64,000 nt of DNA from Escherichia coli (GCF_044324785.1 NZ_CP172127.1); one strand, 5' to 3'; numbered from the stretch's first letter, positions 14,058-33,099 are shown. The notes: a model not told the origin generated them from the letters alone. Translations and numbers: made by a program.

Positions 14058-15242
14058 CTAAATATCTTTAATAAACAGCAGACAAATCATCGCAATACCC
14101 AGCATTCCTATCGCCAGCCAGAACAACGCGTGGTAGCTCCAGATTTCAACCATAATTCCGTCAACAGAGCCGGCGATAATCCAGCCGACACGTGAGGTAT
14201 TTGCATATAACGTTGTCGCAGAGCCTATTTTTTCAGGCATCAGATCCTGAAAATAAAGCATGCCGATACCACAGAGAATACCAAGGAAGATGGCATTTAG
14301 AATTTGCAATTCCAGCTCAACTGCCGGAGTTGTCGCCATGAGTACGCTGGTGTAAAAACACATTCCACTCACGATAGCAATGAGCATTAATAGTCGCTTA
14401 CCAATACGTTTCATGTAATAGCCTGCGATTAACATCATCGGAATTTCCAGACCGGCAGCGATACCAATCATTTCTCCAGCCAGTTTATCGGTTAGATGCA
14501 GTTCATCAATAATAAATAGCGGCATATTTATCATGTAGAGATTATTCGCCGCCCACATCATTGAACAGACCACAAAAAGTAGCCGCGTATCCCGCTTCCT
14601 ATGGGTGGAGGGTAAAATTTCTATGGGTTGGGTAACGACAGGAATATTTCTTTGTATTGATGGCAAAAACAACCAGACTATCAGTCCGCAAACAACAAAT
14701 GCGATGGCAGCGGTGAGATACATCACTTTAAAACTAAATCCCATTGCCAGTTCATAAGCGAGCGGTGGCCCGATAACCCAGGCAAGCGAGATCTGAGCAC
14801 GTAAAAATGTACTGAACATGACCGTCTCACGGCCTGTTCTGTCGGCGTGTTCACGGGCGAGGGCGAACATTTGCGGGTTTGCAGTGGAAGCAAAACTACT
14901 CAGAAGTACGCCCGTTGAGAGGAGAATGAAGTAGTTGCGATTCCACGCAAAAAGCGTGCAGGCCAGCACTCCAAATAAGCAACATAGCAGGATCAGTAAT
15001 TTACGGTCGCCTTGTTTATCGGAGTGTCTTGCCAGAAATTGACTGACCAGAATTCCCATAATAGCGCTACCGGTGAAGAAAAAACCTACCATTATAGGAC
15101 GAGCTTTCAGTTCATCTGCGAGGAATATACTTAGGGTAGGAGTCTGAAGAGCGCCCGCAATACCAGTCAGAAAGGCGACAAGTAAAAATGCCGCGGCAGT
15201 GAGATCAAGTATTTTTGATGGAGTGGTAGCCGTTTTTTGCAT
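14058..15242 (-). CDS. setC: MFS sugar efflux transporter SetC
   Basis: 394 aa, 12-TM MFS profile, immediately adjacent to the selC-side attachment region as in K-12. Confidence 0.8.
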   Translation of the reverse strand: MQKTATTPSKILDLTAAAFLLVAFLTGIAGALQTPTLSIFLADELKARPIMVGFFFTGSAIMGILVSQFLARHSDKQGDRKLLILLCCLFGVLACTLFAWNRNYFILLSTGVLLSSFASTANPQMFALAREHADRTGRETVMFSTFLRAQISLAWVIGPPLAYELAMGFSFKVMYLTAAIAFVVCGLIVWLFLPSIQRNIPVVTQPIEILPSTHRKRDTRLLFVVCSMMWAANNLYMINMPLFIIDELHLTDKLAGEMIGIAAGLEIPMMLIAGYYMKRIGKRLLMLIAIVSGMCFYTSVLMATTPAVELELQILNAIFLGILCGIGMLYFQDLMPEKIGSATTLYANTSRVGWIIAGSVDGIMVEIWSYHALFWLAIGMLGIAMICLLFIKDI

Positions 15243-16037: not shown

Positions 16038-16880
16038 TTATGAAGGTAACACTCCCGGATAGTGTTTCGCAATAATATCATTCAGCCTGTCAACCAGTTC
16101 TGGTTTCCTGAACCTGATGTGCGCGGAGCCTTTCTTAAAGTATCTGATGCTGAACATCTCATCTTCATAGCATTCTTTACCCTGAACAGACCGGATGTGA
16201 TCATCCAGACGAATAGTGATGTTTTCCCGGTTGTCGGGGATCGGTTTGCCGCTGAACAGATGTAGCATTCTTTCCAGGTCGACGAGTCGGTCAGTCTGTT
16301 GCCCGGTGATAAGATGAAACCCCCACCGGTCCCACCTCACCAGGTTGTTGACGATAATTTTACTGCCAAATTTGCAGGGGCAATTGGTTTTGTAATTCCA
16401 GCTCAGTCCCCTGAAGACGTTGATCACCCCTCGCTCAAACACCTCATCCTTATTCTGGTGTAGTTGTTCAAATGTGATCAGAATGTTCGCTTCACTGATT
16501 TCCGGAAAATTATCGTACTCCAGTGACCGGTACCATGTATCACGGGCCTGTGCATCCATTAAGGAAAGCATCCCTGAACGTTGCATCAGGTCACGCCAGA
16601 TTTCGCGATCGAGATTGCGTGTGATGGCTTTCATTGCGGTTTCCGGTTTCTCCATCAGCCAGCAGCCGCAGCGAAAATCCTGTTTCATGGCCCAGCCCGG
16701 GGCGGCTTTACCGCCAATACTTTCTGTCATTGCTGATATTTCAGCCAGTTGCCGGATAAGTGTGTCGATTTGCAGCAGTGTACTCTTTCGTACAGCCAGA
16801 ATGTGGCGGATACTGGTTGAGCAGATAACGTCCGTATGCCCGGTGACCACTTCCGGACGGGAGATTGTGATGTCTGACAT
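16038..16880 (-). CDS. Conserved island-end protein (DUF4942-like, methyltransferase-like)
   Basis: 280 aa; terminal gene of the yeeP…cbtA-type module; a truncated second copy of its 5' end is at 30782..30940. Confidence 0.5.
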   Translation of the reverse strand: MSDITISRPEVVTGHTDVICSTSIRHILAVRKSTLLQIDTLIRQLAEISAMTESIGGKAAPGWAMKQDFRCGCWLMEKPETAMKAITRNLDREIWRDLMQRSGMLSLMDAQARDTWYRSLEYDNFPEISEANILITFEQLHQNKDEVFERGVINVFRGLSWNYKTNCPCKFGSKIIVNNLVRWDRWGFHLITGQQTDRLVDLERMLHLFSGKPIPDNRENITIRLDDHIRSVQGKECYEDEMFSIRYFKKGSAHIRFRKPELVDRLNDIIAKHYPGVLPS

Positions 16881-16964
16881 TATCGGTTTCCCTTTTGGTT
16901 TATAAACGAAAACGCCAGCCCTGTTCAGGCTGGCGTCAGTGGAATGAAGTATGGTGAGTGAGGC

Positions 16965-17390
16965 TCACGCGCTCAGGTGAATGAGTTGCAGGTGACGCAG
17001 GGTGCGGACATCCTCCCTGGCCTGTTCGATACAGGGCAACAATGCTGCCGAATCCGTTTTATCCTCATCGTTGTCGAAAATAATTCCGGACCCGCAGTCG
17101 ATATTGTCCTGCAGCCACGCAATGAGGATATCCAGCGCTGTTTCAGTGGTTAATGGCATCACGCTCTGTATCACTGTATTGTCTTCCGGCAACTGATGAG
17201 AGCTGGCAGAAGTCGCCGGTGTTTCGGTAGCGTCACGTTCATCCACCACGCGGAGTGAATAACCGTTTTCAGCGACCTTGTTAATCAGTTCAGTGAGCTC
17301 AACACCATCAATGTCAACGACAATTCGCCCTATATTCAGTGCCTGTACGTTAACGCTGTCTGCTTCCAATGTCAGGGCCAGTTTCATCAT
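16965..17390 (-). CDS. Hypothetical protein downstream of cbtA (YeeW-like position)
   Basis: 141 aa, acidic; overlaps the cbtA stop by 4 bp; its 3' end is duplicated at 30616..30705. Confidence 0.55.
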   Translation of the reverse strand: MMKLALTLEADSVNVQALNIGRIVVDIDGVELTELINKVAENGYSLRVVDERDATETPATSASSHQLPEDNTVIQSVMPLTTETALDILIAWLQDNIDCGSGIIFDNDEDKTDSAALLPCIEQAREDVRTLRHLQLIHLSA

Positions 17391-17761
17391 TTCGCCTCCG
17401 GATACTTACCCAGGGTAATGTTATTTACCGTTCTGTAATTGTCGCGGGTCATCAGGCCGGTCGCCCTGCGAGCCCGGAGGATATCGATGCTGTTTATTAA
17501 CTGAGAGCGGGTACAGGCGCTGAATCCCGGCTGGTTGGTACGCACCAGCGCGTATTTTTCCACGAGAAAGTTCACCGCATCACACAGTGAAATGCCTGCC
17601 TCAATATGCAGCTCAATCACGCGTTCATCCGCGAACGGTGTGTCATTCAGCGTAAGGCTGTAATGCTGGTCCAGTAACCGGGTGAGCAGTGTCTGCCAGA
17701 TGGTGACGGGAGACGGGCAGCACGATGCCTCCCGTACATGCGTGTCGGGTAATGTTTTCAT
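17387..17761 (-). CDS. cbtA: CbtA/YeeV-family type IV toxin (cytoskeleton-binding toxin)
   Basis: 124 aa; …WQTLLTRLLDQHYSLTLNDTPFADERVIELHIEAGISLCDAVNFLVEKYALVRTNQPGFSACTRSQLINSIDILRARRATGLMTRDNYRTVNNITLGK… matches the family. Confidence 0.85.
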   Translation of the reverse strand: MKTLPDTHVREASCCPSPVTIWQTLLTRLLDQHYSLTLNDTPFADERVIELHIEAGISLCDAVNFLVEKYALVRTNQPGFSACTRSQLINSIDILRARRATGLMTRDNYRTVNNITLGKYPEAK

Positions 17762-17850
17762 AATGAAGATTTTCCTGATATGCAGAGATAAAAAATGGGA
17801 CAGTGGCGTGGTGAAAACACCAGGCCGGAGCAGAAGATTATTCTGATGAT

Positions 17851-18219
17851 TTACTTTTTCGTTTCGGGCGTCGGATAAACAGCCAGATAAACGTAACCAC
17901 AGGAGCCGAGGGTGTCGGCTTCACAGGTCAGCCCCTTCGCATACAGTGTCACGGTATGCTGATGGCGGGGATTCAGTTCACCGCTGGTGAGCATGAGCTC
18001 CAGTTGTTTCATCGGCAGCGGAAAGGCCTGGTCCGGATGGTACGCATCCGCATCTCTGAACCGGCCTCTGATACCGGCACGGTCGGCAAGGTAATGCAAC
18101 CGGTTACCCTCCTGCACCAGACGTGCCCCGAAACAGGGCGTCACGGTGCAGGGCAGTCCCCACCAGAGGCGGTCGTGATTGTCGTCGTGATGCGTTGTCC
18201 CGGGGAGTGTGTCTGACAC
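17851..18219 (-). CDS. cbeA: CbeA/YeeU-family antitoxin
   Basis: GTG start (VSDTLPGTT…) gives 122 aa matching YeeU; the track ORF 17851..18339 has an unsupported N-terminal extension. Confidence 0.8.
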   Translation of the reverse strand: MSDTLPGTTHHDDNHDRLWWGLPCTVTPCFGARLVQEGNRLHYLADRAGIRGRFRDADAYHPDQAFPLPMKQLELMLTSGELNPRHQHTVTLYAKGLTCEADTLGSCGYVYLAVYPTPETKK

Positions 18220-18268
18220 GATAAAATCCTCACAGAAAATCGTTGAATGATAGTTTAACTTTGACAGG

Positions 18269-18913
18269 TCAGCCGGTGCGCAGACCGGCTTCGGTGAAGG
18301 TGTATTCGTTGATGAGAAGGGCCTCATCCACAGGGGCATCTGAGGTCAGCCTGTTGTGCTCGTTTTCCAGTTGACGGTACAGCCATAAGGCCAGGTCGCG
18401 CAGGGCTTCGCTGACAGCGGCTTCCGCATCTGTTGTCATAGTCTGACCAGTCGGACTGTTCCGGGTAACAGTGATATCCATGCTGTACGGATGGCAGTAG
18501 CGTCCCCGGCGGTGGATTTCAGCCTGCAGTTGCCAGAAGTTACGCTTCTGCACCGCCTGCAGGGCATCCGCGATACGATGGAGTTCATGCTCCTGTGGGG
18601 CATACTTCCGGATTATCCGGGCTGTCGCCGGCTGCCAGTGCCAGCGTCCTTCAAAACAGGCTCCGTCCCCCTGGCTGCAGCATCCGCTGAACCAGATGCA
18701 CGGCTCTTCCATAAACCTGCCGTTGCTGAGCCGGAAAACGCGCTGGCGGAGGTCAATTCCGAAAATGTCACAGACCGCCCTGAAGTCCTCATACACGTTT
18801 TCATACCAGTTGCTGTCAGCATGATGCTGACGGTACCCGTCGCGGGCTTTTCCCCGTACCGGGCAGGAAAGTTCATCCAGCGTATACACTGTGATGGTGA
18901 TAATGCTGCTCAT
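18269..18913 (-). CDS. Hypothetical protein (214 aa) between the DUF987 gene and the antitoxin
   Basis: Long ORF in operon orientation; Cys/Trp-rich segment CIWFSGCCSQGDGACFEGRWHW; no family recognised. Confidence 0.5.
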   Translation of the reverse strand: MSSIITITVYTLDELSCPVRGKARDGYRQHHADSNWYENVYEDFRAVCDIFGIDLRQRVFRLSNGRFMEEPCIWFSGCCSQGDGACFEGRWHWQPATARIIRKYAPQEHELHRIADALQAVQKRNFWQLQAEIHRRGRYCHPYSMDITVTRNSPTGQTMTTDAEAAVSEALRDLALWLYRQLENEHNRLTSDAPVDEALLINEYTFTEAGLRTG

Positions 18914-18931
18914 CAGAATCCCCTTTCTGAT

Positions 18932-19153
18932 TCAGTTCAGGGTGACGCTCATCAGCCGGACATACGGGCCAAAACTGTCCTTACGGCGTTCAGCAAACAC
19001 GGCCAGCACACCGGGAATATCCTGTACTTCACGACCGGTATACGTCTCAGCACTGCCGTGCCAGCGGTACTTACCGGTGCAGAACGGAAATAGACGGGAT
19101 GCAGGATGCTGTTGGTGAATACGCATGGCTTCACCACGGGTGATAATTTTCAT
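18932..19153 (-). CDS. Small YeeT-like protein (DUF987)
   Basis: 73 aa; conserved position between the RadC-like gene and the toxin-antitoxin pair. Confidence 0.65.
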   Translation of the reverse strand: MKIITRGEAMRIHQQHPASRLFPFCTGKYRWHGSAETYTGREVQDIPGVLAVFAERRKDSFGPYVRLMSVTLN

Positions 19154-19215
19154 AATGGGATACCTCTGAAGACAGAAGATAAAAGTGAAAACAGGTGTGA
19201 TGTGGTTGTGACGGG

Positions 19216-19692
19216 TTAAAGCAGACCATGTTCGGCAAAGGAGAAAACCTGGCTGCCACCGACTATCAGATGGTCCGGCACCCGGATATCCACCAGGCCC
19301 AGTGCCTGTACCAGACGTTCCGTGATAAGGCGGTCTGCCTTGCTGGGTGTGACTTCACCGGACGGGTGATTGTGCGCCAGCACCACGGCAGCGGCATTGT
19401 GGTACAGGGCGCGTTTAATCACTTCCCGGGGATGGACTTCCGTGCGGTTGATGGTGCCGGTGAAGAGGGTTTCACCGGCAATCAGCTGATTCTGGTTGTT
19501 CAGATACAGCACCCGGAATTCTTCACGCTCCAGTCCCGCCATGTTCAGAATCAGCCATTCCCGTGCCGCATGCGTGGAGGTGAAGGCCACGCCGGGTTCA
19601 TGAAGATGGCGGTCCAGGGCTTTCAGGGCCCGCTGAATGAGGCTGCGCTCTCTGGTTGTCATTTCTCCGGGCAGAAAGGAAATCTGTTGCAT
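19216..19692 (-). CDS. RadC-like JAB-domain protein (YeeS/YfjY family)
   Basis: 158 aa; JAMM motif region …VVLAHNHPSGEVTPSKAD…. Confidence 0.85.
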   Translation of the reverse strand: MQQISFLPGEMTTRERSLIQRALKALDRHLHEPGVAFTSTHAAREWLILNMAGLEREEFRVLYLNNQNQLIAGETLFTGTINRTEVHPREVIKRALYHNAAAVVLAHNHPSGEVTPSKADRLITERLVQALGLVDIRVPDHLIVGGSQVFSFAEHGLL

Positions 19693-19707
19693 TGTTCCGG
19701 CCCCCTT

Positions 19708-20193
19708 TCAGTCAATGATGCGCATAATGGCGCTGCATTCCGGATGCTGCAGGGCGTAATCCCGCAGACGGTAATAATGAACCGTCATGGCATAACACTC
19801 CGTACGGCAGGCGTGATGACTGTACGTCATCAGACAGGCAGCAATGCCGGCGGCTTCCGGGCTCATTTCAGCGCGGTTACCGTTCATGGCATTGAACAGT
19901 ACCCATGTTTCGTCATCATCATCATCCGGTTCGGGGGCCATAAATGCCCCGCCGTTGTTCAGGGTGTACAGATTCCAGATACCACCGCAGTAGTCTTCGC
20001 ACAGACGGTCCATCCAGCCGAAGACACGGGGCTCCAGGGTCACCCACTGTGGAATGAGGCCAAAATGCTGCGGCCAGAAGCTGATGCGCTGTTCATCAGG
20101 GACGGGAGTGGCAACCAGTTGAGACTGGTTATTCCCTGATGCAGTAGTTACGGAAACAGAAGGTGTGGTGGAGCTATGCGAAAAGGTTGTCAT
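19708..20193 (-). CDS. Antirestriction protein, KlcA/ArdB family
   Basis: 161 aa; acidic stretch PEPDDDDDETW and characteristic position upstream of the RadC-like gene. Confidence 0.7.
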   Translation of the reverse strand: MTTFSHSSTTPSVSVTTASGNNQSQLVATPVPDEQRISFWPQHFGLIPQWVTLEPRVFGWMDRLCEDYCGGIWNLYTLNNGGAFMAPEPDDDDDETWVLFNAMNGNRAEMSPEAAGIAACLMTYSHHACRTECYAMTVHYYRLRDYALQHPECSAIMRIID

Positions 20194-20284
20194 GAGATGA
20201 TTCCTTATAAAAAGTAAATGAATGGAAGAATGCCTGGGGACTGGTACAGACGTGAGTCAGGGCTGCACTTTCAGGGAAACAGCA

Positions 20285-21103
20285 TCAGCGCATGCTCTCC
20301 AGCAGCGTTTCTGCCATCACCCACAATGCGCGGTTGAGTTTTATATCGGTATCAATGCTGTGAATGGCCCGGGTATGGATACGTTTTCCTTTTGCACTGC
20401 GACCGGAAATCCCGCCTTTCAGCATATTCTCCTGGATGGTCTGATAAGCACTCCACAGGTCCTTACCGTAATCCTCCCGGCGTCGTGGTGTCAGAATGTC
20501 GGCGGTGGTGACGGGCTGATGTTCGTCACCATAACGGTAAGTCAGTGCCGCCTGTGCCAGCGCCTGGCGTGCCGGTGGCGGCAGGACCAGCGACTGCATG
20601 GCATCACGCTTCTCCTCTATCCGGTCAAACACGCCCACCACCTCGTAAGCCCCTTCAATGACTCTGTCCACCACATTTCCCCGGTGCGGAACACGCACTT
20701 CCCCCAGAGACTGACCGCAGACGCATCCGTTCTGGCAGACGAACCTGAAGTAACCCGGCAGCATCTGGTAGCTGGAGGTACCGTCATGAGAGTTGAGCAG
20801 AATAATTTCAGGGACATGTTGTCCGTTTATCTCCCCGTCACGGCGCAGACGCAGCATGTGTTTGGTATACCCCCGGCGGCCCGGGTCACGTACGCGGGTC
20901 TGGCAGGCGAAGAATGGCTGAAAGCCTTCCCGCTGCAGGCTTTCCAGCACGGTGATGGTGGGGATGTATGTATAGTTCCGGCTCCGGGAGGTGTGTTTAT
21001 CTTCCCCGAAAATCCCGGGCACATGGTGCATCAGCTCTTCACGGGTCAGCGGACGGTCACGGCGTATCTGGTTCGCATAACCAAAACGACTGGCTAATCG
21101 CAT
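20285..21103 (-). CDS. DUF932-family protein (YfjQ/YafZ-like)
   Basis: 272 aa; immediately downstream of the GTPase gene, as in CP4-type elements. Confidence 0.7.
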   Translation of the reverse strand: MRLASRFGYANQIRRDRPLTREELMHHVPGIFGEDKHTSRSRNYTYIPTITVLESLQREGFQPFFACQTRVRDPGRRGYTKHMLRLRRDGEINGQHVPEIILLNSHDGTSSYQMLPGYFRFVCQNGCVCGQSLGEVRVPHRGNVVDRVIEGAYEVVGVFDRIEEKRDAMQSLVLPPPARQALAQAALTYRYGDEHQPVTTADILTPRRREDYGKDLWSAYQTIQENMLKGGISGRSAKGKRIHTRAIHSIDTDIKLNRALWVMAETLLESMR

Positions 21104-21288
21104 ACTTTGCTCCTTATCAGTGGTTAAGACTGAATGACGTAATCAATGAAAAAGCCGCGTCTCACGGAGAAGACGCGGCCTGATGGATGAAATGAATGAG
21201 GGTTTACCGAAGCCCTTCAGCATTGTGGTGACGCAACCGGAAATGCGTTTCCTGGTTATCGCCGGGGCCGGTCAAAAAGCGGGGACAT

Positions 21289-22173
21289 TCAGAACAGGCG
21301 ATCCCACAGTGTGATCAGCAGGCGGATAATGCGATCACGGGCTTTGCGCAGAAGCTGCAGCATCCAGGCCGGAAAGCTGAACCGGGCAATGGCAGCGTCA
21401 AAACTCTGGCCGATGGCGTCACCAAAAGCCTGCTGTGCGTGTTGCTGATCCTGCGCAGTGCGCTTTTCATTCCGGATATGCGAATAAACCGCGCTGGTTG
21501 CCTGTGGTGGCAGGGCGTGGATCATCAGAGACACAAATGCCGGAAGATTCCAGCCGGCAGGAGCGGCAACGGGGAGTACCGGAAATGATGAAGGGAACAG
21601 GGTTGCCACCCGGGCTGTCACCGTCGCCAGCGAGAGTTCCTGGTGACGGGACGGGCATTTTTCTGTGTCGTTCCATTCTTCAGCAGGAAATACGCGATCG
21701 GCATGGCTGAGAACAAACAGAAAACGCGAGGGATCTGCACCTTCATTCAGTAAAAACTGATGCATGGCGATGTCGGCAGCATACGCACGTTCATCAGCCC
21801 GCAGGATCCAGATAATCAGATCCAGTTCGGGCAGTAACTGACTGTAAAGTGCCCGGTATTCCTGATCATGCTGTGGTGTTTCGCCAGTGCCGGGCAGATC
21901 GACCAGCGTCATTCTTCGTTCACCGGGCTGAAAGGTAAGACGATGAGCCTGACGGGTGCAGCCGTTCAGCGGATGCGTGGCGCAGACACGGGACTGAAAA
22001 ATGGCATTGCACAGGCTGCTTTTTCCGGCACCGGATTTACCCATAATGCCAATCACGGGCTCGTAATGAATAACACTGTGGAGATGTTCAAGGATTTTCT
22101 GGCGAATTTCTTCAGGAAGAAACGTCAGATATGATTTCACTTGTGCGGAGAGGGAAGAATGGCTGAATGACAT
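21289..22173 (-). CDS. GTPase-family protein (YeeP/YfjP/YkfA-like, P-loop)
   Basis: 294 aa; Walker A GIMGKSGAGKSSL and G-motifs DLPG…; first gene of the CP4-like module. Confidence 0.8.
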   Translation of the reverse strand: MSFSHSSLSAQVKSYLTFLPEEIRQKILEHLHSVIHYEPVIGIMGKSGAGKSSLCNAIFQSRVCATHPLNGCTRQAHRLTFQPGERRMTLVDLPGTGETPQHDQEYRALYSQLLPELDLIIWILRADERAYAADIAMHQFLLNEGADPSRFLFVLSHADRVFPAEEWNDTEKCPSRHQELSLATVTARVATLFPSSFPVLPVAAPAGWNLPAFVSLMIHALPPQATSAVYSHIRNEKRTAQDQQHAQQAFGDAIGQSFDAAIARFSFPAWMLQLLRKARDRIIRLLITLWDRLF

Positions 22174-29295: not shown

Positions 29296-30201
29296 CTATA
29301 TTTCCAGACACCTGTTATCACTTAACCCATTACTGGCCTGCTGCCGCAGATATTCCCGTGGCGAGCGATAACCCAGTGCACTATGCGGATGCCATTCGTT
29401 ATAATGCTCGAACGCCTCTGCAAGGTTCTTTGCTGCCGTTAACCCGTCTGGTTTAGGCATGATACTGATGTAGTCACGCTTTATCGTTTTCACGAAGCTC
29501 TCTGCTATGCCGTTACTCTCCGGACTCCGCACCGCCGTGTTCTTCGGTTCAAGCCCCAACATCCGGGCAAACTGCCGTGTTTCATTAGCCCGGTAGCATG
29601 AACCATTATCCGTCAGCCACTCTACTGGAGACGCCGGAAGCTCGTTGCCGAAGCGGCGTTCCACCGCTCCCAGCATGACGTCCTGTACTGTTTCACTGTT
29701 GAAGCCGCCCGTAGTGACCGCCCAGTGCAGTGCCTCACGGTCACAGCAGTCCAGCGCGAACGTGACTCGCAGTTTTTCTCCGTTATCACAGCGGAACTCG
29801 AACCCGTCAGAGCACCATCGTTGATTGCTTTCTTTCACGGCCACTTTGCCAGTATGTGCCCGTTTCGATGGCGGTACAGCGGTTTTTCGCTCAAGCAACA
29901 GCGCATTCTGGCGCATGATCCGGTAAACACGTTTGGCATTGATCGCAGGCATACCATCAAGTTCGGCCTGTCTGCGAAGCAGCGCCCATACCCGACGATA
30001 ACCATACGTGGGCAGCTCTCCGATAACATGGTGTATACGGAGAAGCACATCCGTATCATCTGAGTGACGGCTGCGGCGACCATCTTTCCAGTCATCGGTT
30101 CGTCTGAGAATTACGTGCAACTGCGCACGCGACACCCGGAGACAACGGCTGACTAAGCTTACTCCCCATCCCCGGGCAATAAGGGCGCGTGCGCTATCCA
30201 C
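29296..30201 (-). CDS. insD: IS2 transposase InsD (orfB)
   Basis: 301 aa with integrase-core motifs; recognised as IS2 InsD. Confidence 0.9.
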
Positions 30202-30524
30202 TTTTTTGCCCGTCCATATTCAACGGCTTCTTTGAGGAGTTCATTTTCCATCGTTTTCTTGCCGAGCAGGCGCTGGAGTTCTTTAATCTGCTTCATGGCG
30301 GCAGCAAGTTCAGAGGCAGGAACAACCTGTTCTCCGGCGGCGACAGCAGTAAGACTTCCTTCCTGGTATTGCTTACGCCAGAGAAATAACTGGCTGGCTG
30401 CTACACCATGTTGCCGGGCAACGAGGGAGACCGTCATCCCCGGTTCAAAGCTCTGCTGAACAATTGCGATCTTTTCCTGTGTGGTACGCCGTCTGCGTTT
30501 CTCCGGTCCTAAGACATCAATCAT
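30159..30524 (-). CDS. insC: IS2 InsC (orfA)
   Basis: 121 aa from [40 protein letters not shown]…; overlaps insD in the usual -1 frameshift arrangement. Confidence 0.9.
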
Positions 30525-30615
30525 CTGCTCTCCAATGACTAGTCTAAAAACTAGTATTAAGACTATCACTTATTTAAGTGATATTGGTTGTCTGGAGATT
30601 CAGGGGGCCAGTCTA

Positions 30616-30940: not shown

Positions 30941-31340
30941 CCGATATAGATGGGGAAGATGCTTTTATCCGGATTGGATCTATCGCGATGGTGCGAGTAC
31001 CACTTGATGCAATGGAGCCTGTCGAGGCAGATGACGAGTAACAGAGCTCGGTATCTCAATCAGGACCTGATTGTCCTGGTTCGATGCCGAAAACCAGTGA
31101 TTTTTCGTGTTGGTATCTGTGTTGGTATAGGATGGTGTTGTTTATTATTAACAATTTTAAATCATGAGGTTAAATCGCATGTTTGAGTCAGGCCTTCGCA
31201 TCAATATCAAAACAATCAATAAATAAGTCCTTTAACCTAGCCACGACCAATCATTGATCAACCACGAAATCCTCTCCGAAACACAGTCCCAATCCCTAAA
31301 CCCTACGCTCAACATCGAAACCCGCTTATCACCATCCCCC

Positions 31341-32210
31341 TCATCCCCTGAACACCTCCCGCCGGTGCCACGCCACAAACCCCTCCTGGGGATAGCATTC
31401 TTTCCCCATCGGCAAGGTAATCGGCTTACCATCAAAATCCCAGAACAACCTGCCAACGATGCCTCCGCCGTTCACCGCCGGCGAAACCTGGATGCGCATA
31501 TCCTCATCCAGACCAATGGATCCTTTATCAAAAGCCTTATGGTGAATCGCGCAGAGCGCCAGGCCGTTAGGGATTTCGCAGGGGCCGCCGTGCTGCTTCC
31601 ACTTGATATGGGCCGCTTCCAGGGCGACGGAGGTATTATCATGGCGCATATTGAAGCCGCAGATAGCGCACTCATAGTTATAGGCGCGCAGCACCTGCTG
31701 GCGAAAATGCGGGTCGCGCTCTTTGCGGATCTGCAGCAGATCAAACCCCATCTCTTCAGCCAGTTCTTCCTGAATACTCTCCGGAAAGTGCGCCTCGAGG
31801 ATCTGATGGGCGAGGGTATTGATCAGCTTCTTATTTCTGTTAAGTAACGCAAAATGCTGCTCATCAAAGCCGCCGGCGACGTGGCAGAGCTCCAGCTCTT
31901 TGCCGGGCGGCTGTCGGCTGCCCTGGGTTGAGCACTGTTCGCTGTTGTGTAGCTCCCAGAAGCCGTCGCCTTTCAGGCGCCAGAAGGGCATGTCCGGCCG
32001 GTACTGGCGGCGCTGCGGGCCAAAGCGTTCCAGCAGGCTATGCAGCTCATCACGTATCTCCGAGGCGTAGTCGAACATCCGCGCATGGCCGCGCTGGTAT
32101 TGCGAGAGGACGTACAGCAGCAATAGTGGTTTATGCGGCGCACGCTGTTCGCCTTTGCGCCAGATGGTGATGTTCTCGATCGCGTGTTGCAGGGTCGTGC
32201 TGGAGGGCAT
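31341..32210 (-). CDS. HNH endonuclease-domain protein, putative modification-dependent (type IV-like) restriction nuclease
   Basis: HNH core YECAICGFNMRHDNTSVALEAAHIKWKQHGGPCEIPNGLALCAIHHKAFDKG in the C-terminal half; N-terminal about 180 aa unassigned. Start taken at the second Met (MPSSTT…). Confidence 0.6.
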   Translation of the reverse strand: MPSSTTLQHAIENITIWRKGEQRAPHKPLLLLYVLSQYQRGHARMFDYASEIRDELHSLLERFGPQRRQYRPDMPFWRLKGDGFWELHNSEQCSTQGSRQPPGKELELCHVAGGFDEQHFALLNRNKKLINTLAHQILEAHFPESIQEELAEEMGFDLLQIRKERDPHFRQQVLRAYNYECAICGFNMRHDNTSVALEAAHIKWKQHGGPCEIPNGLALCAIHHKAFDKGSIGLDEDMRIQVSPAVNGGGIVGRLFWDFDGKPITLPMGKECYPQEGFVAWHRREVFRG

Positions 32211-32389
32211 AGCGTTACATTGGCAGCTAAATAAATGCGATGATGCTCGCAAAATCCTTGCCGATCAACCTACCAGATGCGGCGATTCTACGTGGATCGC
32301 GATTTAATTATCACTGCCAGTTATTTGTTCGAAAAGACCATAGCTTTCTATTTATACTCAAGCTTCGCGCCATCAGATAGCTATGTCTT

Positions 32390-33028
32390 ATGAAAAAACT
32401 ACCGGACCATTTATCCAGGGAATGCATCATCGCCGCCATTCGCGCTTACGATGCAGGCGTTGCGCATCAGTTTAAAAGCGCGCGTCTGTATGAGATCGAG
32501 TTTGAGGGGCGTCGGTATCCTTCAAAAGCCATCGTCGGGTTAGCGGCCACGCTTGCGACGGGAACGGAATTTACCCCGGCGGATTTCAGCGGGGGGATTA
32601 AATCAAAATGCGTGCGTCTGTTACTGGAGCAAGGATTTACGATCGCGTCGCAGGGCGCTGGCGATGACGAGGTTGCGCTTTTCCCCGATGAGGGGCAGAC
32701 GACCATGGAGTACGTGGAAGGGGCGGCGTTGCAGGTGGTGGTCAATCGCTATGAGCGCGACCGTCAGGCTCGTCAGGCGGCGCTTCGCCTGCATGGCTGC
32801 CAGTGTCAGGTATGCGGTCTGGATATGGCCAGCCGCTATGGCGATATCGGCCAGGGCTTTATCCATATCCACCATCTCATCCCGCTGGCCGGGATAAAGC
32901 AGGACTACCGCCTGAACCCTGAAACCGATCTGATCCCGGTATGTCCCAACTGCCATGCGATGCTGCACCGGCGAGATCCGCCGTTTACCCCCGAAGAGCT
33001 GAAGGCCCGGCTGCGCCCCACAGACTGA
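32390..33028 (+). CDS. McrA-like HNH endonuclease with a distinct N-terminal domain
   Basis: C-terminus CQCQVCGLDMASRYGDIGQGFIHIHHLIPLAGIKQDYRLNPETDLIPVCPNCHAMLHRRD parallels the E. coli McrA HNH motif (C.NCG…HHVIPLS…CPNCH..LH). Confidence 0.65.
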   Translation: MKKLPDHLSRECIIAAIRAYDAGVAHQFKSARLYEIEFEGRRYPSKAIVGLAATLATGTEFTPADFSGGIKSKCVRLLLEQGFTIASQGAGDDEVALFPDEGQTTMEYVEGAALQVVVNRYERDRQARQAALRLHGCQCQVCGLDMASRYGDIGQGFIHIHHLIPLAGIKQDYRLNPETDLIPVCPNCHAMLHRRDPPFTPEELKARLRPTD

Positions 33029-33072: not shown

Positions 33073-33099
33073 CCCACGCTACCTTACCGGTAGCGTGGG
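33073..33099. terminator. Hairpin between convergent genes (HNH + / GH43 -)
   Basis: Perfect 11-bp stem CCCACGCTACC / GGTAGCGTGGG with TTACC loop; T-rich flanks are modest. Confidence 0.45.

Follow-up and report, generated by a model that had tools for sequence, protein, structure and literature searches.

A conserved divergent cassette of SBD-HNH and head-HNH nuclease genes in a mosaic island of Escherichia coli

Two intact HNH nuclease genes, here designated P1 and P2, are divergently transcribed on an Escherichia coli chromosome, within the 64,000-nucleotide stretch of DNA that was analysed (the window). P1 combines a sulfur-binding domain (SBD) with an HNH_2 nuclease core, while P2 combines the small head domain of ScoMcrA with a McrA-type HNH core; both retain their catalytic residues, the pair is conserved as a cassette, and each gene is also found independently of the other. 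With slightly better than even confidence, the pair is read as two autonomous HNH restriction nucleases, each a single polypeptide without a methyltransferase, that are co-inherited as a cassette and depend on DNA modification. P1 itself is not new, being one more allele of a characterised phosphorothioate (PT)-dependent enzyme, correctly named in RefSeq. The interest rests on P2, whose combination of head and HNH is encoded in roughly a quarter of the complete E. coli genomes.

Locus and genomic island

The P1/P2 pair is situated in a mosaic island of approximately 42 kb at tRNA-SeC, bordered by a SetB/SetC-like transporter gene on one side and by an integrase gene on the other. The interior of the island contains IS3 and IS66 elements, toxin-antitoxin genes, a CbtA/CbeA-type block and a xyloside-utilisation cluster. 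The start codons of P1 and P2 are separated by 179 bp, and the transporter, the integrase, tRNA-SeC and the IS elements mark the surroundings as an island, in agreement with the earlier note, which had described a divergent pair with a gap of about 180 bp inside an island. The features of the locus are as follows.

14058-15242, SetB/SetC-like transporter gene, one island edge
31341-32210, minus strand, P1 gene, 289 aa, 33.36 kDa, with the stop codon at 31341-31343
32211-32389, intergenic region of 179 bp with two back-to-back promoter-like sites
32390-33028, plus strand, P2 gene, 212 aa, 23.5 kDa
33073-33099, GC-rich hairpin, likely terminator (terminator-like scan), between the convergent ends of P2 and a GH43 gene
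55526-56710, integrase gene, other island edge, adjoining tRNA-SeC
57010-57104, tRNA-SeC, integrase-side island edge

The stem of the hairpin downstream of P2 consists of 11 pairs, 8 of which are GC. A structured RNA was also sought, and no Rfam match was obtained at E <= 1 in the intergenic region or its flanks. An antisense ORF of 197 aa (31254-31847), located mostly within P1, was taken as spurious; PGAP annotates P1 alone there.

The 1.9-kb stretch containing P1 and P2 is 99.9-100% identical in 11 of the 5426 complete E. coli genomes. Neither the annotation of GF60, which carries an identical pair and was inspected over 20 kb on each side, nor 20 of the larger ORFs of the window include a dnd or ssp gene. 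SBD-HNH genes are reported to adjoin dnd clusters seldom (PMC7461809).

P1, an SBD-HNH protein

The start of P1 is placed at the ATG at 32210, which is also the choice of PGAP, and a longer ORF beginning with TTG (to 32252) is unnecessary. Against the NCBIfam profile NF045808 (PT-DNA_restrict), P1 scores 440.8 bits, where the cut-off is 180, and its residues 6-288 of 289 cover profile positions 2-284 of 284. Judged from this match, P1 is an ordinary full-length member of the known phosphorothioate-dependent SBD-HNH family. The RefSeq name on the identical P1 DNA is "phosphorothioated DNA-binding restriction endonuclease" (WP_045146950.1, PGAP). Two domains are recognised in P1.

31731-32210, minus strand, sulfur-binding domain (SBD), about residues 1-160 (phmmer, PF26340)
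31506-31670, minus strand, HNH_2 catalytic and zinc-finger core, residues 181-235 (Pfam PF13391, E=1.7e-9)

By phmmer, P1 residues 11-155 align with the SBD of ScoMcrA (5zmo, E=1.3e-6; also 5zmm) and with that of SprMcrA (7cc9, E=6e-5). The SBD is placed at P1 residues 6-156, and PF26340 is precomputed on P0121, a cluster representative 98% identical to P1. The N-terminal half of P1, which had been called unassigned in the earlier note, is thus an SBD of the ScoMcrA/SprMcrA type. This domain carries H26-K27, a KPLLLL motif and M74-P75-F76-W77. H26-K27 aligns with H116-R117 of ScoMcrA, and M74-P75 aligns with Y164-P165, so that the proline is kept and the tyrosine is replaced by methionine; A168 of ScoMcrA corresponds to R78. 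The MPFW sequence is common to all of the enterobacterial P1 homologues compared. P1 thus departs from ScoMcrA in one of the two motifs that contact the sulfur, and it may recognise the sulfur in a somewhat different way. The HNH_2 core follows with the sequence CAICGF...AAHIKW...NGLALCAIHH.

Within this family, cleavage and restriction of PT DNA have been demonstrated for EcoWI and SprMcrA (PMC7461809). EcoWI of E. coli is a homodimer that, with Mg2+, cleaves GpsAAC/GpsTTC at N7/N6; it also abolishes transformation by dnd+ plasmids (PMC7461809). A motif KPzzLL..PF..W has been described for the EcoWI homologues (PMC7461809). PT dependence is therefore expected of P1 by family membership. The modification-dependent (type IV-like) activity earlier proposed for both proteins is accordingly supported for P1, in the type IV / type IIM sense and by membership in NF045808, while for P2 such an activity is putative.

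P2, a head-HNH protein

The RefSeq protein identical to P2 is named only "HNH endonuclease" (WP_045146948.1, PGAP). Its two domains are the following.

32390-32659, plus strand, head domain (ScoMcrA_N, PF26345), residues about 1-90
32804-32974, plus strand, HNH core, residues 139-195 (Pfam PF01844, E=3.6e-6)

The HNH core contains a zinc site formed by C139/C142/C185/C188, together with H161-H162, D180, N187 and H193. In 16 P2 homologues, reaching down to 39% identity, C139, C142, H161, H162, D180, C185, N187, C188, H189 and H193 are invariant. Residues 110-194 align with the HNH of EcoKMcrA (6ghc, E=1e-4), and this alignment confirms the McrA-type nuclease that had been proposed for the second protein. 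The Pfam matches of P1 (HNH_2) and P2 (HNH) likewise uphold the view that both proteins have a clear HNH.

The N-terminal half of P2 is also assigned. Residues 7-86 match the head of ScoMcrA (5zmm residues 6-92), and PF26345 is assigned on P0001, which is 97% identical to P2. The homology to ScoMcrA residues 1-90 extends to both sequence and fold. Conserved positions in the head are H26, F28, Y34, Y43, K46, G50, P63, F66 and G68-G69. The N-terminal halves of P1 and P2 were compared with hhalign, which returned a probability of 2.3%; they are mutually unrelated, as the earlier note had stated, and by this profile comparison head and SBD are not even remotely related.

Among the reader families that had been put forward as candidates for the N-terminal halves (SRA, SBD, EVE/PUA and YTH), the SBD was found in P1, and SRA, EVE/PUA and YTH have no Pfam or structural support in either N-terminal half. 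A structural search with the P2 head gave weak winged-helix-like fold matches, none of them to a DpnI- or HhiV4I-type winged helix. The NEco domain is absent from P2, and in 6ghc only the HNH was matched. The ScoMcrA head has been described as a small, flexibly attached domain of unknown function (PMC6224610). No literature on the domain beyond that description was found, nor any published test of a head-only HNH protein. P2 has a recognised architecture but is itself uncharacterised, and a modification-dependent activity is plausible for it.

Distribution of the pair and of the single genes

A contiguous pair of the P1/P2 type is present in about 336 of the 5426 complete E. coli genomes, the head-HNH gene in 1267 (about 23%) and SBD-HNH-like DNA in 3462; head-HNH genes also exist in many other phyla. 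In K. aerogenes, the same divergent pair has a type I R-M system and an Mrr_N-HNH gene as neighbours, and three Citrobacter species possess it as well. The pair is also present at another E. coli locus, much more common than that of the window, between McrBC-like genes and nanS-nanM-nanC-fimB. The proteins of the K. aerogenes, Citrobacter and nanS/fimB pairs are 79-86% (P1) and 65-80% (P2) identical in amino acid sequence to those of the window. At the nucleotide level, homology among these pairs extends no further than the outer ends of the two genes, beyond which the flanking sequences are unrelated; the two genes are thus transmitted together. An E. coli integrative conjugative element (ICE) contains diverged versions of both genes (51% and 62%), separated by 4 kb.

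Each gene also stands alone. SBD-HNH singletons occur in Salmonella, Enterobacter and E. coli EC291, and no head-HNH gene was detected in the 4-8 kb flanks examined there. Head-HNH singletons occur in Pantoea, with SIR2 and helicase-PLD genes as neighbours, and in non-enterobacterial genomes. All eight sampled E. coli head-HNH loci adjoin an SBD-HNH gene or its relic, the latter being a 150-bp 5' remnant in five of them. The head-HNH gene is intact in seven of the eight, including four of the five relic loci, and is frameshifted in the fifth.

The persistence of the divergent pair across 20-35% amino-acid divergence and four unrelated genomic contexts, the ICE that holds both genes, and the intact or relic SBD-HNH gene at every sampled E. 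coli head-HNH locus are what would be expected if P1 and P2 cooperate. P2 would then be an accessory of a PT-dependent system, acting in a complex or as a second nuclease on PT-cut or nicked DNA, and the pair would correspond to the head, SBD and HNH of ScoMcrA divided over two proteins; in ScoMcrA, head and SBD are indeed fused. Several observations point the other way: SBD-HNH-like DNA is found in far more E. coli genomes than the head-HNH gene, the head-HNH gene remains intact where the SBD-HNH gene has been deleted to a relic, and it is solitary in Pantoea and in non-enterobacterial genomes. Furthermore, EcoWI restricts dnd+ plasmids by itself as a homodimer, the HNH domains of P1 and P2 belong to different Pfam families, and the 150 best head-domain cluster representatives include no head-SBD fusion, a weak negative because the SBD profile was narrow, built from five sequences. 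Cooperation is distinctly unlikely on this evidence. The singletons, the relic loci and the sufficiency of EcoWI alone argue for two autonomous co-inherited enzymes and not for a two-subunit system, and the same evidence speaks against an obligate relationship in the alternative raised in the earlier note, a nuclease with a partner.

Intergenic region and regulation

P1 and P2 appear each to have its own promoter within the 179 bp that separate them. The candidate elements are listed below.

32268-32240, minus strand, candidate P1 promoter, TTGATC (32268-32263), 17-nt spacer, CATCAT (32245-32240)
32329-32358, plus strand, candidate P2 promoter, TCGAAA-18-TATACT (consensus scan)
32236-32251, palindrome TGCGA-N6-TCGCA, overlapping the candidate P1 -10, possible operator

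The pattern TTGAnn, 17-nt spacer, CATSAT is conserved upstream of 8 of the 8 SBD-HNH genes extracted, whether paired or single. The candidate P2 promoter lies 32 nt upstream of P2, and its -10 is kept as TATAAT in K. aerogenes. The evidence for these candidates is their conservation and not the scan, since the total of the promoter consensus scan is not above that of shuffled sequences (3 sites vs 1.8 +/- 1.4).

All of the SBD-HNH genes examined, the singletons and the ICE version among them, are preceded by the palindrome at a distance of approximately 25-45 nt. The Enterobacter copy has one mismatch, a relic of the palindrome is kept in L093, and only one unrelated match exists in 1.13 Mb of loci. 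The palindrome looks like an operator for some factor. If that factor were P2, the head would bind the palindrome over the P1 promoter in the manner of a restriction controller protein, a role to which the overlap with the candidate P1 -10 in a shared intergenic region and the weak winged-helix-like matches of the head would be suited. P2 is nevertheless unlikely to be the factor, because the palindrome also precedes the singleton SBD-HNH genes of Salmonella, Enterobacter and EC291, which have no detected head-HNH gene in the 4-8 kb flanks examined; moreover, the catalytic HNH of P2 is invariant, although a protein with a purely regulatory role could dispense with it. Regulation of P1 by P2 is therefore considered highly improbable.

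About 29 further E. coli genomes contain a match to a 156-bp stretch of the intergenic region. Its interpretation as a repeat or the end of a mobile element was rejected, as the one locus examined is a relic of the P1/P2 locus between IS256 and ISKpn26 fragments.

The head domain across proteins

The head-domain profile collects 4730 clusters at 50% identity. Partner domains were counted in 60 multidomain head representatives, each as the number of members with a match at E <= 0.001, with the following result.

HNH, 23 of 60 representatives
HNH_2, 14 of 60 representatives
EVE, 12 of 60 representatives
McrB-type AAA_5, 9 of 60 representatives
nSTAND3, 7 of 60 representatives
DUF3427, 3 of 60 representatives
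NOV_C, 3 of 60 representatives
SRA, 2 of 60 representatives
AspBHI_N, 1 of 60 representatives

This partner set is the domain vocabulary of modification-dependent restriction. The pairing of the head with a PT sensor in the cassette, together with its fusion to the SBD in ScoMcrA, leads to a concrete hypothesis, namely that the head reads a DNA modification. In its full form, the head (PF26345) would be an unrecognised DNA-modification reader, for a PT context outside the range of the SBD or for another foreign mark, and the head-HNH proteins would constitute a new, very widespread single-gene type IV family kept beside SBD-HNH by selection; this fuller proposal is tentative and less likely than not. 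Within one polypeptide, the head is often located beside a dedicated reader (EVE, SRA or SBD), so that it may instead be an accessory or generic DNA-binding module.

The same association with bona fide readers, which makes the head not obviously a reader itself, is compatible with a P2 that is no modification-dependent defence enzyme. P2 would in that case be an HNH nuclease with weak expression and with either no specificity or one for DNA structure, of a selfish, toxin-like or repair-related kind, hitch-hiking in defence islands with the head as its generic DNA-binding module, and the PADLOC matches, only partial and weak, fit such a protein. Against this stands the absence of an immunity or antitoxin gene beside head-HNH in any context examined. 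Toxicity would also be expected of a non-specific nuclease that is not regulated, whereas nearly a quarter of the complete E. coli genomes carry the gene intact. The domain partners and the neighbours are overwhelmingly parts of restriction systems. Elsewhere the neighbours of head-HNH are defence genes, comprising the type I R-M system with Mrr_N-HNH, McrBC, and SIR2 with helicase-PLD. A non-defence role for P2 is rather unlikely in view of these contexts.

Proposed mode of action

Two enzymes with different specificities, as had been suggested at the outset, are the favoured reading of the pair. In the case of P1, the SBD would dock on an Rp-phosphorothioate linkage of incoming DNA, as in EcoWI and SprMcrA, and the HNH_2 domains of the homodimer would then cut both strands a few bases away, destroying DNA from hosts with the PT modification genes dnd or ssp. 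P2 would act as a second, independent nuclease, in which the McrA-type HNH with its intact catalytic residues would perform the cut. The head is the sole non-catalytic module of P2 and must hence supply its DNA targeting. The target would most likely be a different foreign mark, either another PT context or a modification absent from Dam+ Dcm+ E. coli, and a cassette of P1 and P2 would thereby widen the coverage.

E. coli is normally Dam+, and the occurrence of head-HNH in 23% of its genomes makes a Dam-site specificity of P2 very unlikely. The winged-helix (wH)-HNH enzymes that depend on 6mA are toxic in Dam+ E. coli (PMC11037411).

If the head were a reader, it would add a new domain to the toolkit of modification-dependent restriction and possibly provide a new reagent for mapping DNA modifications, and its cassette with SBD-HNH would broaden the protection against modified invaders.

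Comparison with known systems

EcoWI and SprMcrA are the closest counterparts of P1. Like P1, they are two-domain nucleases composed of an SBD and an HNH_2 zinc-finger domain, with the KPLLLL...PFW motif present in P1, and the P1 gene likewise has no methyltransferase or dnd gene beside it. P1 (289 aa, 33.36 kDa) and EcoWI (predicted 33.4 kDa) fall in the same length class; the masses do not discriminate, as another E. coli allele has 33.44 kDa. An identification of P1 as EcoWI itself was considered and not adopted, as the EcoWI publications give no sequence or accession. No mention of a P2-type partner gene was found in the EcoWI literature consulted, and no description of the conserved P1/P2 pairing in the literature consulted as a whole.

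For P2, the likeness is divided among several systems. The wH-HNH 6mA type IV enzymes (SruGXI and the HhiV4I relatives; PMC11037411) resemble it in possessing a small N-terminal DNA-binding domain of approximately 90-100 aa fused directly to an HNH, the whole protein measuring 210-280 aa, whereas the structural matches of P2 are without the DpnI/HhiV4I-type winged helix. EcoKMcrA (NEco-HNH, 5mC/5hmC-dependent; 6ghc) is similar in its nuclease, with which the C-terminal 85 residues of P2 align over a region that takes in the Cys4 zinc site and the HH...H residues. Compared with EcoKMcrA, the N-terminus of P2 is the ScoMcrA head and not the 5mC-reading NEco.

ScoMcrA of Streptomyces coelicolor (head-SBD-SRA-HNH; PDB 5zmm) is related to both proteins of the window, although the shared domains are only roughly 25-36% identical. 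In the window, head and SBD are encoded by different genes, and each of these genes also encodes a nuclease domain; neither protein has an SRA match, and the nuclease of P1 is HNH_2 and not the ScoMcrA-type HNH. Nevertheless, the pair possesses three of the four domain types of ScoMcrA, the head in P2, the SBD in P1 and the McrA-type HNH in P2.

Conserved site upstream of the SBD-HNH genes

The SBD-HNH genes examined, which encode a sulfur-binding domain joined to an HNH nuclease, share an inverted repeat in front of their start codons.

32236-32251: palindrome TGCGA-N6-TCGCA, recognized by its conservation 5' of SBD-HNH genes

The palindrome lies approximately 25-45 nt 5' of the start in every gene examined, paired and single alike, and it overlaps a promoter-like site, TTGAnn-17-CATSAT, both elements being conserved. 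The SBD-HNH upstream regions of seven loci (L003, L004, L084, L090, L103, L107, and L111) were compared with the window, and the hosts include E. coli, Salmonella, Citrobacter, Klebsiella, and Enterobacter, together with one integrative conjugative element. Judged from sequence, the palindrome looks like an operator candidate for a regulator.

Decay of the pair at other E. coli loci

A match to the intergenic region alone (156 bp; window 32230-32385) occurs in about 29 further complete genomes of E. coli, with 96.8% identity in the three genomes listed.

L002 6001-6156: intergenic copy, by nucleotide match to the window
L116, L118, L119, L120, and L121, about 5118/5125-5267/5274: 150-bp 5' fragment of the SBD-HNH gene
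L105/L106 3125-3214 and L114 6061-6150: 29-aa ORF at the nanS locus, abutting the head-HNH stop codon

The copy in L002, the one locus examined, is flanked by IS256 and ISKpn26 fragments, and this position marks it as a relic of the cassette from which both genes have gone. At the nanS/fimB locus, decay of the pair is asymmetric: the SBD-HNH gene is often reduced to the 150-bp fragment, and the adjoining head-HNH gene is intact in four of the five loci with the fragment. The 29-aa ORF is labeled YthB (Pfam) in some records and "hypothetical protein" in RefSeq; it has no counterpart 3' of the head-HNH gene (P2) in the window.

Surroundings of the pair in the window

7-10654: ETT2/eip-like type III secretion remnants at the left end
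16038-22173, minus strand: CP4-57-like block, partly identified
29296-30569: IS3-family element, orfA/orfB in overlapping frames
31254-31847, plus strand: 197-aa antisense ORF, largely within the coding region of the SBD-HNH gene (P1)

The secretion remnants, interrupted by an IS5-family transposase, comprise an inverse-autotransporter adhesin fragment, SipD-like and translocon-like proteins, and a HilA/EilA-family regulator scoring 953 bits. In the CP4-57-like block, one ORF has an NCBIfam match to RadC/JAB, and GTPase-like matches are seen for another of 294 aa. The ORFs sized as DUF932, an antirestriction protein, and CbtA have no NCBIfam match; the identical gene order in L093 and L119 points to these identities. 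The IS3-family element is located upstream of the P1 stop codon, at a distance of about 770 bp. In GF60, a related strain, a DUF4198 gene is split by it, and the remaining space before P1 is taken up by short fragments of pseudogenes. The antisense ORF, without PGAP annotation, is probably spurious.

Settings in K. aerogenes and on a conjugative element

L090 4260-4919: third small HNH nuclease, 219 aa, Mrr_N + HNH

In K. aerogenes, this gene directly adjoins the pair, forming a cluster of three sensor-HNH genes, and a type I R-M system comes next. Both head-HNH and SBD-HNH are also carried on one E. coli integrative conjugative element (L084-L089 and L094-L096), which encodes an integrase, TraI_2, TraG_N, and ArdC and, close to the end that bears the integrase, modules of the AbiEi or DarT/Macro type.
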